Assembly: GCA_964588705.1 (NCBI GenBank)
Contig: CAZPQV010000003.1
Span: 12,926-76,925 of the forward strand
DNA from: an uncultured Chryseobacterium sp.
GTDB taxonomy: Bacteria; Bacteroidota; Bacteroidia; Flavobacteriales; Weeksellaceae
Length of the DNA stretch: 64,000 nt
Direction of reading: 5' to 3'
Made by a program: the position numbers and the translations under genes. The stretch's first letter is position 1, and every line of letters begins with the position of its first letter. Of this stretch, positions 2,798 to 17,248 are shown one piece after another. Below the pieces are notes generated by a model that was not told the DNA's origin, searched no databases, and saw only the letters and a list, made by a program, of their open reading frames with translations.

Positions 2798-4549
2798 TTA
2801 GTTTTCTTCGCTTTCTTCCAGTTCGTGTTTCAGCTGTGCTTTATACAGCGTAGCGTAATATCCGTTGCGTTGCAGCAGTTCAGTGTGCTTTCCTTCTTCC
2901 ACAATTTTACCACCATCCATTACGATAATTTTATCAGCTTTTTCAATTGTTGAAAGTCGGTGAGCAATGATAATCGATGTTCGGTTTTGGGTAATTTTTT
3001 CAGTAGCCCTTTGGATCAGTTTTTCACTTTCGTGGTCGATTGAAGATGTTGCTTCATCCAAAATCAATATTTTCGGATTAGAAAGATAAGCGCGAAGGAA
3101 CGACAGTAGCTGTCTTTGTCCCAATGAAATGGAAGAACCTCTTTCACTCACCACATAATCATATTCACCCGGAAGCTGTCTGATAAAATCATCTACTTCG
3201 ATTTCAGCAGCAGCTTTTTTTATTTTATCTAAAGTAATAGTGTCATCACCAAAAGCGAGATTCTCGTAAATACTTCCGTGGAACAGGAAAACATCCTGCA
3301 GCACGACACCAATATGACTTCTTAAGTTGTAAAGTTCGTAATCTTTCAGATTAACATCATCAATTAAAATACTTCCGGAATTGATGTCGTAAAGTCGGGT
3401 AATTAAACTGATAATGGTGGTTTTTCCGGCTCCTGTTGCACCGACAATCGCTACACTTTCACCCGGATTAACTTTGAAACTGATACCTTTCAGCACTTCC
3501 TGCTTCTCATCATAAGAAAAACGCACATCACGAAATTCGATCTTGCCTTCAAATTCATCTTTCATCACTTTCCCCTCATTCGTCATCTGGAAATCTTCAT
3601 CAATTAAGCCAAGAACACGCTCTGCACCAACAATTCCTCGCTGGATGTTGTTGAAACGGTCGGCTATCTGTCTCAACGGACGAATCAGCATTGAAATATA
3701 CTGGATGAAGGCAATTACAACCCCAGCTGTAATCGTGATATACCCTCCATAAAAAAGAATGAATCCGATAAATACAGAAGAAATCAGTTCAACCACCGGA
3801 AAGAAAAGAGAGAAGATGAATACAGTTCTCAACAGCGCACCTTTCAGGGTTATGTTGATTTCATCAAACTTTTTAAATTCCTGTTCTTCCCTGTTGAACA
3901 CCTGAATGATTTGCATCCCTGCTAAACGCTCCTGCACGAAGGAATTCTGATTTGCAGTCCAGGTTCTTTCATCTCCAAATGCTTTTTTCAATCGCTTCTG
4001 GAAAAATCTCGTAATAACCACCATCAGTGGAAGAATCACCAACGAAATATAGGTAAGATTGGCGTCCGTCTGATACATCATAATTAATACAAAAATGATT
4101 CTCAGAACATCTCCAAATACCATCAGAAAACCGTCGGTATAAACCGTGGCAATGGTTTCAACATCGCCAACAGCACGTGTTACCAGTTGACCGATAGGCG
4201 TTTTATCGAAAAAAGAGGTTTTAAAATAAATCAGTTTGTTGTAAAGTCTTTCACGGATGTCGCGGATAACATTCTGCGAAATGAAATTAGAAAACCATAC
4301 GAGGAAAAAGTTTAGAAAAGTTTCCAACACCACCAAACCGATTAGCCAGTAGATGTGCTTCATCATTTGGTTTTTGTCACCCAGTTTAATGATGTCGATA
4401 TCCACAATCTGCATCGTGAGATAAGGTCTGTACGTAGAAACCACCGATAGTAAAATAGAAATTACCAATGCAATGATGAACCACGACCGGAATTTCATCC
4501 CAATCGTGAAAAGTCTTTTGATAATTTGCCAGGTGCTTTGCTTTTTCAT
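2798..4549 (-). CDS. ABC transporter permease/ATP-binding fusion (type I exporter, MsbA-like)
   Basis: 583 aa. N-terminal six-TM-type region, then Walker A GATGAGKTT, signature LSLGQRQ and Walker B ILILDEATS. Confidence 0.9.
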   Translation of the reverse strand: MKKQSTWQIIKRLFTIGMKFRSWFIIALVISILLSVVSTYRPYLTMQIVDIDIIKLGDKNQMMKHIYWLIGLVVLETFLNFFLVWFSNFISQNVIRDIRERLYNKLIYFKTSFFDKTPIGQLVTRAVGDVETIATVYTDGFLMVFGDVLRIIFVLIMMYQTDANLTYISLVILPLMVVITRFFQKRLKKAFGDERTWTANQNSFVQERLAGMQIIQVFNREEQEFKKFDEINITLKGALLRTVFIFSLFFPVVELISSVFIGFILFYGGYITITAGVVIAFIQYISMLIRPLRQIADRFNNIQRGIVGAERVLGLIDEDFQMTNEGKVMKDEFEGKIEFRDVRFSYDEKQEVLKGISFKVNPGESVAIVGATGAGKTTIISLITRLYDINSGSILIDDVNLKDYELYNLRSHIGVVLQDVFLFHGSIYENLAFGDDTITLDKIKKAAAEIEVDDFIRQLPGEYDYVVSERGSSISLGQRQLLSFLRAYLSNPKILILDEATSSIDHESEKLIQRATEKITQNRTSIIIAHRLSTIEKADKIIVMDGGKIVEEGKHTELLQRNGYYATLYKAQLKHELEESEEN

Positions 4550-4561
4550 TCAGAACAGATG

Positions 4562-4569
4562 CAAATTTA
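4562..4569 (-). promoter_or_regulatory. -7 box TAAATTTG (Bacteroidota sigma-A consensus TAnnTTTG)
   Basis: 12 nt upstream of the ABC exporter ATG. Confidence 0.45.
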
Positions 4570-4581
4570 CGAAAAAGAGCG

Positions 4582-4630
4582 GAGTTTTGAATTTCGAGTT
4601 TCGGGTTTCGAGCTTCGAGCTCTTGAATTC
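4582..4630. repeat. phased heptamer array, GAGNTTC class
   Basis: GAGTTTT GAATTTC GAGTTTC GGGTTTC GAGCTTC GAGCTCT TGAATTC. Confidence 0.8.
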
Positions 4631-4682
4631 TAGTCCCAGAAATATCATTTCTAAATAACTTGGTGAGCTTAAATTATGCTAT

Positions 4683-4751
4683 GAAGTCGCGGAGCGACGA
4701 ATATTGGTAGAAAATGTAATGAGAAAAAATGCGAAGCGCCAGAGGCGCGAC
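4683..4751. repeat. REP-like hairpins, left flank of RAYT
   Basis: GTCGC-GGA-GCGAC and GCGCC-AGA-GGCGC, each a 5-bp GC stem with a 3-nt loop. Confidence 0.75.
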
Positions 4752-4768
4752 TTATTGGTTCAGAAAAA

Positions 4769-5236
4769 TTATCGTAATTCTTTAAAAATAAATTTTTCAT
4801 CAAAATCTATTTCAAATGCTTTTAAAAAATCAATATATTCTGATTTAAATGATTTCTTTTGGTGATGCTTTTCCTGATTATTGATATATTTTACTACTGA
4901 ATCAATTTGTGATTTGCTATAAGAAAATGCTCCAAAACTGTCCTGCCATTCAAATCTCGAAGATGTAAAACCTTTTTCATTAATCCATCTTGAAGAATTG
5001 CTTTTGATATCTTTTACTAAATCTGACAGTGATTGAGTCGGTCGCATTCCTATAAGTATATGGATATGATCGGGCATTCCGTTAATTGCAAGAAGTTTAT
5101 GTTTCTTGTTTTGGATTATAGCTGTAATATATTTATACAACTCATCTCTCCATTCAGATTTGATTTGTGAATCTCTGAATTTCACAGCAAAAACAATTTG
5201 GATATGTAATTGTGTATAGGTATTATTTTCAGCCAC
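4769..5236 (-). CDS. REP-associated tyrosine transposase (RAYT; IS200/IS605 TnpA-like Y1 HUH enzyme)
   Basis: 155 aa with GTG start. HUH motif in PDHIHILIG and catalytic Tyr region KYINNQEKHH (Y-x3-Q-x2-HH type). Flanked by inverted GC-rich hairpin repeats. Confidence 0.85.
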   Translation of the reverse strand: MAENNTYTQLHIQIVFAVKFRDSQIKSEWRDELYKYITAIIQNKKHKLLAINGMPDHIHILIGMRPTQSLSDLVKDIKSNSSRWINEKGFTSSRFEWQDSFGAFSYSKSQIDSVVKYINNQEKHHQKKSFKSEYIDFLKAFEIDFDEKFIFKELR

Positions 5237-5294
5237 GAATTTTGGATTTGAGATAAAGATAAGGAAATGAAAACCAAATGATTTTAATCAAGAT

Positions 5295-5363
5295 GTCGCG
5301 CCTCTGGCGCTTCACAATTATAACAACTTGTTTGCTACCGATATTGCGTCGCTCTATGACTAC
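5295..5363. repeat. REP-like hairpins, right flank of RAYT (inverted copies)
   Basis: GCGCC-TCT-GGCGC hairpin plus a degenerate copy of the outer hairpin. Confidence 0.75.
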
Positions 5364-5408
5364 GTCAAAATTGATGTCTCAAACTCACCAATTTTTCATC
5401 TTTCCACT

Positions 5409-6140
5409 CTAAAACTCATACCCAACATCCACCAGAAACAATCCGTGGGCCGGTGCAGAAGTCCCGGCAGAATTGCGGTTTTTATCTTCAATGATTTTCC
5501 GTAAATCTGAAGGCTGAATTTTCCCTGAACCAACTTCAACCATGGTTCCCACAATCGCGCGCACCATATTTCTGAGGAAACGGTTGGCAGAAATGGTAAA
5601 TTTCAGTTCCGATCCATTTTGCTCCCATTCTGCTTTGTAAATTTTGCAGAGATTGGTTTTATTGTCGCCCCCGATTTTTGCAAAACTCTCAAAATCTTCG
5701 TACTCAAACAGGATTTTGCAGGCTTCACTCATTTTTTTAACATCTAAAGGACGTTTCCAATGTTGCCATGCAGAATTTTGTGTAAACGGATTTTTCTCCA
5801 AAGAAATATAATATTCATACGTGCGGAAAGTCGCATCAAACCGGGCGTGAAAATCGTCTTTAACCTGAAAAATTCTTTTAACAGAAATATCTGGTGGTAA
5901 AAAACTGTTGAGCTGTTGAGGAAATTTCTCACTCAAAATTTGTTCGGTATCAAAATGAGCAAACATCTTTTTAGCATGAACTCCGGTATCGGTTCTTCCG
6001 GCGCCGGTAGTTTTAATTTCTTCACGAAGAATGGTTGACATCGCTTTTTCAAGTTCTTCCTGTACCGAAATTTCGTTCGGCTGAATCTGGTAACCGAAAT
6101 AGTTTTGTCCGTTGTAAGAAAATTCGATGAAGTATCTCAA
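5409..6140 (-). CDS. truA: tRNA pseudouridine(38-40) synthase TruA
   Basis: GAGRTDTGVHA catalytic Asp motif. I prefer the TTG start giving M-RYFIEFSYNG (typical TruA N-terminus) over the longer ORF-track start at 6239. Confidence 0.9.
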   Translation of the reverse strand: MRYFIEFSYNGQNYFGYQIQPNEISVQEELEKAMSTILREEIKTTGAGRTDTGVHAKKMFAHFDTEQILSEKFPQQLNSFLPPDISVKRIFQVKDDFHARFDATFRTYEYYISLEKNPFTQNSAWQHWKRPLDVKKMSEACKILFEYEDFESFAKIGGDNKTNLCKIYKAEWEQNGSELKFTISANRFLRNMVRAIVGTMVEVGSGKIQPSDLRKIIEDKNRNSAGTSAPAHGLFLVDVGYEF

Positions 6141-6172
6141 TTTTGTAAATTTGCAGGACAAAAATAAGACTT

Positions 6173-6667
6173 TTGACGAAGATTCTCTTACTTTCCGACA
6201 CACATTCGCATATGGATGACCGCATTCTTGAGTATGCAAAACAGGCTGATGAAATTTGGCATTGCGGAGATTTTGGAAGTATGGAGGTGATTGAAGAACT
6301 TGAAAAAATAAATTCTGTAAAAGGAGTTTATGGAAACATTGATAATGATAAAATCAGAAAATGCTTTTCGGAAGTCAGCCGTTTTAAATGTGAAGGTGTC
6401 GAAGTTCTGATGATTCACATCGGTGGTTATCCCGGAAAATATTCGCCTTTAGCAAGGAAAGAGATTTTAGAAAAACAACCAAAGTTATTTATTTCAGGGC
6501 ATTCACATATTCTGAAAGCGATGTATGACGAGAAAAATCAATTACTTCATCTGAATCCCGGAGCCTGCGGAAAACAGGGATGGCATAAAACTAGAACGAT
6601 GATGCGCTTTGAAATTGATGGCACCGAAATAAAAAATCTTGAAATAATCGAATTGGGAAGCAGATGA
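6173..6667 (+). CDS. metallophosphoesterase (YfcE/MJ0936-type phosphodiesterase)
   Basis: 164 aa with TTG start. Motifs LLLSDTHSH, CGDF, GNID, SGHSH. Confidence 0.85.
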   Translation: MTKILLLSDTHSHMDDRILEYAKQADEIWHCGDFGSMEVIEELEKINSVKGVYGNIDNDKIRKCFSEVSRFKCEGVEVLMIHIGGYPGKYSPLARKEILEKQPKLFISGHSHILKAMYDEKNQLLHLNPGACGKQGWHKTRTMMRFEIDGTEIKNLEIIELGSR

Positions 6668-16889: not shown

Positions 16890-17248
16890 TGACAGATTCT
16901 ATTTTTGAAAATACACTTTTCGGAATCCTGTTTTCTACAGGAGCTGTCATCCTTTTTATCGGTTTTATTTTCAAATATTTCCCACCAAAGAAGATTAATG
17001 TATTTTACGGCCACCGAACGCCAAGAGCCATGCGAAATCAGGAAAACTGGGATTTTGCTCAAAAACATTCGGCGATGCAGTTCATTTATGCCGGAATCAC
17101 CATGCTGATTTTCTCTGCGATTGCATTCGTCCTAAACTTCAATCCGGAGCTTAAATGGTTCGGACTTATTGTTGTGCTGTCAACCCTCCTGTTTTTTGTG
17201 TTGAGAACAGAACGTGCCTTAAAAGAATTTGAAAACAAAAAATCCTGA
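16889..17248 (+). CDS. SdpI/YhfL family membrane protein
   Basis: 119 aa with start/stop overlap. YGHRTPRAMRNQENWDFAQK motif between TM segments. Confidence 0.7.
   Translation: MTDSIFENTLFGILFSTGAVILFIGFIFKYFPPKKINVFYGHRTPRAMRNQENWDFAQKHSAMQFIYAGITMLIFSAIAFVLNFNPELKWFGLIVVLSTLLFFVLRTERALKEFENKKS

Follow-up and report, generated by a model that had tools for sequence, protein, structure and literature searches.

Is a transposase-like gene that lies between two other genes and is bracketed by hairpins still a mobile element, or is it an enzyme that its host has kept together with repeats of its own? The question is raised by a locus in a 64-kb stretch of DNA from an uncultured Chryseobacterium sp. 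(hereafter the window, C3:12926-76925 of a 2.50-Mb draft genome of 175 contigs with 37.7% GC). Three minus-strand genes follow one another here, in the order truA (5409-6239), an open reading frame (ORF) for 155 amino acids (4769-5236) and the gene of an ATP-binding cassette (ABC) exporter (2798-4549). A preliminary description of the window had named the ORF a RAYT, a tyrosine transposase associated with repetitive extragenic palindromes (REPs), and regarded it as a domesticated Y1 transposase flanked by inverted REP-like hairpins. The analysis reported here favours a related reading, which we consider probable: the gene would encode a domesticated, immobile IS200-like Y1 HUH enzyme of subclass 1.2, accompanied by a small cognate population of REP-like elements. 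RAYT/REP systems are the standard example of a host retaining a transposase together with a population of tiny non-autonomous repeats; to our knowledge, the well-founded cases so far involve class-2 enzymes, most of them in Proteobacteria. The present locus and its relatives point to the same lifestyle in a subclass that has been listed without repeats.

The gene encodes a Y1 protein with the signature of subclass 1.2

4769-5236, minus strand: Y1 HUH tyrosine transposase homologue, 155 aa, GTG start (Pfam Y1_Tnp, NCBIfam IS200, AlphaFold2 fold)

The 155-aa protein matched the Pfam family Y1_Tnp (PF01797) from end to end (3.5e-31, 108 bits against a cut-off of 23). It scored above the cut-off of the NCBIfam model for IS200/IS605 transposases (NF033573, 80.3 versus 55 bits) and below that of the RAYT model (NF047646 REP_Tyr_transpos, 39.1 versus 80 bits). 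The HUH and tyrosine motifs noticed in the preliminary description are both present, as D56-H57-I58-H59 and Y117-INNQEKH124-H125, together with W97-Q98 (EWQDS). H57-I-H59 and Y117 are invariant or nearly so across 31 homologues; the C-terminal tail that follows the tyrosine motif (residues 126-155) is also conserved, with F130, E133, L138, F141 and F151 invariant. However, YINNQEKHH is not a RAYT motif. Class 2 (RAYT/TnpAREP) is characterized by Y---NP and subclass 1.1 by W[TS] and Y[IV]ENQ (PMC6006769), while the signature of subclass 1.2 comprises DH[IV]H, WQ, YIKNQKEHH (Y---Q--HH), a median length of 148 aa and a C-terminal tail of ~30 aa (Quentin 2018; Table 1, PMC6006769). This subclass is described in the same paper as class 1, IS200-like, found at low copy number in Cyanobacteria and Bacteroidetes, and 'REP: no'. 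By its motifs, length and C-terminal tail, the predicted protein matches the TnpAY1 subclass 1.2 signature. The homologues recovered from related genomes all carry Y...Q...H (one ends in YH instead of HH), and all but two carry WQ. Close homologues number thousands in the public collection, all from Bacteroidota where a source is named. They are annotated as 'IS200/IS605 family transposase' by NCBI and as 'REP element-mobilizing transposase RayT' by JGI, and neither name quite fits these genes.

Among solved structures the best sequence matches were ISDra2 TnpA (4e-8) and IS608 TnpA, and the E. coli RAYT (4ER8) gave no sequence-level match at E <= 0.01. The AlphaFold2 model of the protein (predicted local distance difference test, pLDDT, 87; predicted template modelling score, pTM, 0.82) returned only Y1 transposases among its top 30 Foldseek matches in the PDB, including ISDra2, IS608, IS200 and Sulfolobus TnpA. 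The IS200/IS605 enzymes ranked first and 4ER8 came at rank 30, with a template modelling (TM) score of 0.61. Fold and catalytic motifs are intact. A tree was built from the window protein, four TnpAs (three of them encoded beside tnpB), E. coli RayT and 20 homologues, 19 of which came from related genomes. The TnpB-linked IS605 TnpAs formed a separate clade (support 100/99) and the window protein lay outside it. E. coli RayT sits far away on a very long branch, and aligns as YI-NPVKHG where the window protein has YINNQEKHH. Searches with tblastn and with a hidden Markov model (HMM) in six frames found this gene as the sole Y1_Tnp of the genome.

The gene is an old resident of the truA-ABC junction

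Across the order, truA followed directly by the ABC exporter gene is the common state. In the five relatives with the shortest junctions the two genes are separated by 7-120 nt; among these are G012, G014 and G016, the nearest relatives by truA identity, whose junction is empty. A cassette of ~860-1010 nt at this place was found only in the window genome and in G013, which belongs to another genus, with the layout module (reverse complement), gene, module. This junction comparison agrees with the insertion proposed in the preliminary description: the cassette clearly entered a conserved truA-ABC junction, whose ancestral state would have been the empty one.

The orthologs of the window genome and G013 share 82% identity at the protein level and 77% at the DNA level. 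The proportion of synonymous differences (pS) is 0.74 and saturated, the nonsynonymous divergence (dN) is 0.12, and dN/dS, the ratio of nonsynonymous to synonymous divergence, is ~0.04, compared to 0.05 for truA. Ten metagenome-assembled contigs encode a 99%-identical protein (P0001) and were treated as strains of one species; in all ten the gene occupies the same locus and is accompanied by both modules. A search of plasmids gave 368 matching records, all below 60% identity; one reached 56%, and the other 24 listed, spread over the ranking, lay at 24-31%. The gene is single-copy, vertically inherited and under strong purifying selection, and the locus is conserved with its flanking modules across two genera. 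It behaves as a resident host gene and not as an insertion sequence (IS). Its GC content is 28%, against 37.7% for the genome, despite a residence long enough for synonymous saturation relative to the ortholog of the other genus.

The gene is flanked by two inverted copies of one hairpin module

4683-4762, minus strand: downstream (ABC-side) 81-nt module (covariance model R1, 94.2 bits)
Same module, read on the minus strand: AACCAATAA-GTC[GCGCC TCT GGCGC]...CTACCAATATTC[GTCGC TCC GCGAC]T
4736-4748, minus strand: hairpin 1 of the downstream module, GCGCC-NNN-GGCGC (direct reading)
4686-4698, minus strand: second hairpin of the downstream module, with the minus-strand sequence GTCGC-TCC-GCGAC (folding of single-stranded DNA)
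5284-5363, plus strand: upstream (truA-side) 81-nt module, in inverted orientation to its downstream counterpart (covariance model R1, 80.9 bits)
5298-5310, plus strand: hairpin 1 of the upstream module, GCGCC TCT GGCGC (direct reading, folding of single-stranded DNA)
5348-5360, plus strand: degenerate hairpin 2 of the upstream module, GTCGC TCT ATGAC (folding of single-stranded DNA, strain comparison)

Two nested pairs of inverted repeats had been reported around the gene. The inner pair (4733-4751 / 5295-5313, after a correction of its left coordinate by 2 nt to 4733) is indeed perfect over 19 nt, with the core GAAGCGCCAGAGGCGCGAC at 4733-4751; the longest inverted match in 500 shuffles of both flanks was 13 nt. 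The outer pair (4683-4710 / 5335-5363), put at about 22/28, matches at 23/29 positions with one gap. Their interpretation as nested pairs did not hold: what had been called 'inner' and 'outer' repeats are two hairpin units belonging to a single module of ~81 nt. One copy of this module lies on either side of the gene, the two being inverted relative to each other, with the hairpin-1 ends of both copies pointing toward the gene. The module reads AACCAATAA-GTC[GCGCC TCT GGCGC]TYCGCA...~30 nt...CTACCAATATT-C[GTCGC TCC GCGAC]T. It is made of two head-to-tail units ~52 nt apart, each with an ACCAAYA leader, 2-3 nt, a 5-bp GC stem and a TCY loop; unit 1 is AACCAATAAGTC-GCGCC TCT GGCGC-TTCGCA and unit 2 is CTACCAATATTC-GTCGC TCC GCGAC-TTC.

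The upstream and downstream modules match at 62 of 83 aligned positions. When folded as single-stranded DNA, the downstream module makes both hairpins on either strand, and the upstream module keeps hairpin 1 alone. The 5-bp GC stem with a 3-nt loop that had been attributed to each repeat can be seen in each arm, but hairpin 2 of the upstream module has decayed; other strains of the species have GTGAC for ATGAC, one mutation less decayed. As had been noted, the modules are richer in GC (44-46%) than the Y1 gene (28%) and the genome (37.7%). Rfam gave no match in 4300-5700, and neither an intrinsic terminator nor a terminator-like feature was found at the locus; on these grounds terminators and known RNAs were rejected as explanations of the hairpins.

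Covariation was examined over 22 module copies from the two genera. In an alignment that was fitted to the model, which favours pairing, although the stems are plainly readable nonetheless, 97% of stem cells paired, compared to 24-52% when the 3' partners were slid. Two-sided, compensatory changes were seen in seven of the ten stem pairs. Four of the five pairs of hairpin 2 showed them, and the variants of this stem included GTCGC/GCGAC, GCCGC/GCGGC, GCACC/GGTGC and ACGCC/GGCGT. The stem of hairpin 1 pairs in 99% of cells, and hairpin 1 and its leader are almost identical between the two genera although synonymous sites are saturated.

Module copies are dispersed and follow the gene

A covariance model, R1, was built from six module copies, and matches of at least 58 bits were counted as strong. 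The window genome contains five strong copies, all intergenic: the two gene flanks and three solo copies at C9:7685-7765, C17:18892-18972 and C49:699-779. The 64-kb window holds no further module copy, and the cognate population lies elsewhere in the genome, as anticipated in the preliminary description. Two of the five strong copies abut the gene; the chance of finding two within 150 nt of a single gene in 2.5 Mb is ~1e-7. Two solo copies are located in promoter regions, with divergently transcribed genes on either side. The genome-wide hairpin search proposed at the outset did reveal dispersed copies, but not REPINs, the inverted REP doublets, since the hairpins of a module stand head-to-tail. 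Hairpins confined to this locus and an ORF disrupted in relatives had been named as findings that would speak against a domesticated enzyme; the hairpins are dispersed and the ORF is intact in relatives. The genome also contains a second module family of the same architecture and a different sequence, in which AAAGAGGTC-GCTCC TAC GGAGC occurs twice per module, ~50 nt apart:

C37:14423-14501, C11:28213-28291, C41:3224-3301 and C22:23390-23437 of the window genome (G000): second-family modules

The association between gene and repeats was then assessed over 41 genomes, 16 Y1-positive and 25 Y1-negative. Strong R1 matches were confined to the two genomes with the syntenic ortholog (five in the window genome, 16 in G013). 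Weaker R1 matches occurred in 7/16 Y1-positive and 1/25 Y1-negative genomes (p = 0.003). More distant orthologs (~57% identity) are flanked by different GC hairpins. One of these, GCTCCGTAGGAGC, taken from the flank of a distant ortholog, was found in 10/16 Y1-positive against 1/25 Y1-negative genomes (p = 6e-5); with the pattern reversed as a control, a single match appeared over all 41 genomes. In G011 inverted modules flank the gene on both sides and dispersed copies occur as well, some as inverted pairs, and in G013 the units also form a 51-nt tandem array. The module family is tied to the genomes that carry the gene. The ortholog of the complete genome G017 has the following repeats beside it:

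G017:C1:1422288-1422678: three 188-nt tandem units, each with GATTCCGAAGGAATC, downstream of the Y1 ortholog

Several observations concern individual relatives. G013 has six divergent paralogs with 34-82% identity to the window protein; five were retrieved, and all four with a recovered ORF carry Y..NQ..HH. The same genome has the highest counts for every hairpin family tested (16-35 module matches, nine of GCTCCGTAGGAGC and 19 of the ATTCCGAAGGAAT type). At G013:C45:28480-29830 a very AT-rich ORF of 234 aa with no Pfam match lies between direct copies of a composite repeat, which consists of the module and the further hairpins AAAGGGCTACACCCTTTG and GATGTCGCGCCTTCGGCGC; the orthologous site in the window genome (C54:9479-9528) is ~50 nt long and empty. 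This ORF may be a cargo gene between module arrays. In G007 the only Y1 match (G007:C1:3030939-3031376) is interrupted by a stop codon and 36% identical, and seven module-like elements of intermediate score are present, one of them ~4 kb from the Y1 match; G007 may represent a decaying system.

Module positions have turned over between genera

Three module sites of G013 have collinear flanks in the window genome, without a module:

C2:38976-41637, C12:~17138-17210 and C54:9479-9528: empty counterparts, in the window genome, of G013 module sites

Conversely, G013 has no module at the sites occupied in the window genome at purA-hpt and on C9. The only modules at sites shared by both genera are the copies that flank the gene. 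Each genome thus lacks modules at sites occupied in the other, and module positions have turned over after the divergence of the two genera.

By analogy with IS608, ISDra2 and the E. coli RAYT, which we take as guides to the mechanism, we infer that the modules are mobilised by this enzyme. A dimer of the Y1 enzyme would bind the hairpins on single-stranded DNA, where the bases 5' of the stem, the leader, would select a nearby cleavage site. Cutting and rejoining would proceed through a 5'-phosphotyrosine at Y117 with a metal bound by H57/H59. The module would correspond to the left end plus the right end of an IS200/IS605-type element with no cargo between them, and could be excised and re-inserted in trans by 'peel and paste'. 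The two modules at the gene face each other, so that neither strand holds a hairpin-1 to hairpin-2 interval containing the gene; the enzyme could therefore not move its own gene, which would explain why the gene has stayed put.

Several observations weigh against a domesticated enzyme with its own mobile repeats. The differences in module position between the genera could be deletions instead of insertions. Presence/absence polymorphism was found neither at the solo site at purA-hpt (~10 strains) nor for the gene-flanking modules (another ~10), and recent mobility within the species is therefore unproven. In alignments of filled and empty sites between the window genome and G013 the intergenic DNA had diverged so far that neither exact ends nor a target sequence could be read from it; neither the cleavage site nor the exact boundary of the element could be defined, and the activity of the enzyme is a putative one. 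Copy number is low, with five strong copies here versus hundreds for classical REPs. The four copies of the second module family have no cognate gene in the assembly, which contains no second Y1 gene; either they are orphans of a lost paralog or a single enzyme serves both families. In some relatives the repeats that flank the ortholog are direct and not inverted. In the complete genome of G017 the hairpin GATTCCGAAGGAATC occurs in the local 3 x 188-nt array only, a search of the genome having found no dispersed copies, and the association of gene and repeats is therefore not universal among orthologs. Finally, subclass 1.2 has been listed as without REPs (PMC6006769).

Three other explanations were weighed. 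It is very unlikely, in our judgement, that the locus is an ordinary autonomous IS of the IS200 type, with the flanking hairpins as its ends and the solo modules as derivatives resembling miniature inverted-repeat transposable elements. The NCBIfam IS200/IS605 equivalog is indeed exceeded (80 versus 55 bits), the nearest solved structures are IS transposases and the cassette was clearly inserted into the conserved truA-ABC junction, yet the gene is single-copy without duplicates, its locus is common to two genera with saturated synonymous sites (dS) and a dN/dS of 0.04, and close homologues are almost absent from plasmids. The ends of IS200/IS605 elements such as IS608 and ISDra2 are two different hairpins on one strand, whereas the flanks here are inverted copies of one module and not distinct left and right ends on the same strand. 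The protein itself lies outside the TnpB-linked TnpA clade and has WQ and Y..NQ..HH, not W[ST] and YxENQ. A canonical class-2 RAYT (TnpAREP) with REPIN doublets is hardly credible, even though the gene is single-copy, inverted palindromic repeats flank it, their copies are dispersed, JGI names the homologues RayT and the fold matches 4ER8 (TM 0.61). Class-2 membership is refuted by the motif and HMM tests, Y---NP being absent and the RAYT HMM giving 39 bits against a cut-off of 80; 4ER8 yields no sequence match at E <= 0.01, E. coli RayT stands on a very long branch, and the repeats, with stems of 5 bp, are devoid of GT[AG]G and form doublets that are head-to-tail and not inverted. From the original label there remains a single-copy, vertically inherited Y1 homologue, but not a RAYT in the strict sense.

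A somewhat stronger competitor, though we still think it unlikely, is that the Y1 protein was domesticated for some other task on single-stranded DNA, or that the modules are inert relics or structural or regulatory sites used by the host, bound but no longer mobilised. It would accommodate the fixation of the modules in ~10 strains at each of the sites checked, their very low copy number, the position of two solo copies between divergent genes, the decay of hairpin 2 in the upstream module and the lack of dispersed copies in G017; varied roles have moreover been suggested for TnpAY1 subclasses (PMC6006769). Against it stand the module positions, which differ wholly between the genera save at the gene, and the at least 16 strong copies of G013, tandem arrays included. 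Compensatory changes in the stems and conservation of the leader are what would be expected if an enzyme that binds hairpins still recognised the modules, and neither terminator features nor an Rfam match were found. A domesticated subclass 1.2 enzyme with a cognate population of REP-like modules thus remains the reading that we prefer.

Relation to known systems

As a protein family, subclass 1.2 has been described before, and the way of life seen here is known from RAYT/REP; the departure from the literature is the association of this gene with repeats. The protein agrees with subclass 1.2 (PMC6006769) in DH[IV]H, WQ, Y---Q--HH, a length of ~150 aa, the C-terminal tail, low copy number, the absence of IS features and the distribution in Bacteroidetes and Cyanobacteria. 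The paper gives 'REP: no', whereas here the gene is bracketed by dispersed modules with short stems and no GTAG. Its automatic REP search accepted only repeats with a GT[AG]G foot and a stem of 7 bp or more (PMC6006769); surveys would have missed modules of the present kind because they looked for GTAG-footed hairpins with such stems.

With the RAYT/REP systems or 'REPtrons' (E. coli RayT/YafM with REPs and bacterial interspersed mosaic elements, BIMEs; Pseudomonas RAYTs with REPINs) the locus shares a single-copy, vertically inherited Y1 gene, inverted palindromic flanks of the same geometry, copies scattered in intergenic DNA and a repeat family for each paralog. Unlike them, it has a class 1-like protein without Y---NP, repeats with 5-bp stems, no GTAG, an ACCAAYA leader and head-to-tail doublets, and populations of a few to ~20 instead of hundreds. 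The IS200/IS605 elements (IS608, ISDra2) and the gene-less palindrome-associated transposable elements (PATEs) are closest by sequence and fold, and the two-hairpin, same-strand layout of the module resembles a left end plus a right end without cargo; the gene here, however, is not between the ends, is unduplicated, has no TnpB partner and falls outside the bona fide TnpA clade.

What was termed 'RAYT-like IS200 Group 3' (Bertels 2017, PMC5581495) has no duplicates, does not occur on plasmids, has several divergent copies per replicon and is flanked by abundant 16-mers (21 occurrences), with no repeat structure described. Its behaviour matches that observed here. Group 3 may be the same group as subclass 1.2, although the text of PMC5581495 gives neither taxonomy nor motifs. 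The super-family of CGTC-tagged REPs (Di Nocera 2013, PMC3733652) was also considered: hairpin 2 begins with CGTC-GC, and CGTC repeats are listed in Bacteroidetes. Those repeats, however, have stems of 8-9 bp and loops of 4-5 nt, form mostly head-to-head dimers and were reported to lack an associated transposase, and hairpin 1 lacks the CGTC tag; membership was rejected on stem length, loop length and dimer type. No later literature was found on a follow-up of subclass 1.2 or on REPs in Flavobacteria.

A wider proposal, which we put forward tentatively and rate slightly below an even chance, is that subclass 1.2 represents a domestication of an IS200-type enzyme in Bacteroidota separate from that of the RAYTs, each paralog maintaining its own family of short-stem, GTAG-less, head-to-tail modules with two hairpins, which would be mini-IS200 elements without a gene. 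If this is true, REP-like 'replicator plus keeper' systems arose at least twice, from both Y1 branches. If confirmed, the locus would offer a small and tractable system, with 5 to ~20 elements, 81-nt modules and a 155-aa enzyme, in which the recognition of minimal hairpins by Y1 enzymes and the origin of such partnerships could be studied.

Neighbouring features

4582-4619, no strand: GAGTTTC heptamer array (Tandem Repeats Finder, TRF: 5.4 copies, 80% matches)
4562-4569, minus strand: TAAATTTG box upstream of the ABC exporter start, outside the inserted cassette (direct reading)

Degenerate heptamer arrays had been described outside both flanks of the cassette. The left one was recovered by TRF at 4582-4619, but TRF found no array, inverted and weaker or otherwise, on the right at 5365-5408. 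The left array was not counted as belonging to the element, since no GAGTTTC array lies beside the solo modules on C9, C17 and C49 and period-7 arrays are a common intergenic feature genome-wide (267 at a TRF score of at least 30). Many of these have related units, such as GAAACTC, ATTCGAG and AGTTTCA. The array lies near the ABC promoter and has three to five units depending on the strain of the species; owing to this variation in length, the ABC start is displaced by 6-13 nt in other assemblies.

The TAAATTTG box at 4562-4569 fits TAnnTTTG, the -7 promoter consensus of Bacteroidota. Relatives with an empty truA-ABC junction have a TATTTTTG box at the corresponding position upstream of the ABC gene, and the TAnnTTTG box of this gene was left undamaged by the cassette. 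On the other side, the longest ORF of truA, from a TTG at 6239, encodes 276 aa. In the gene calls of other assemblies and in alignments to relatives truA begins ~23-26 codons later and encodes 250-253 aa; its true start is probably near 6158-6170.

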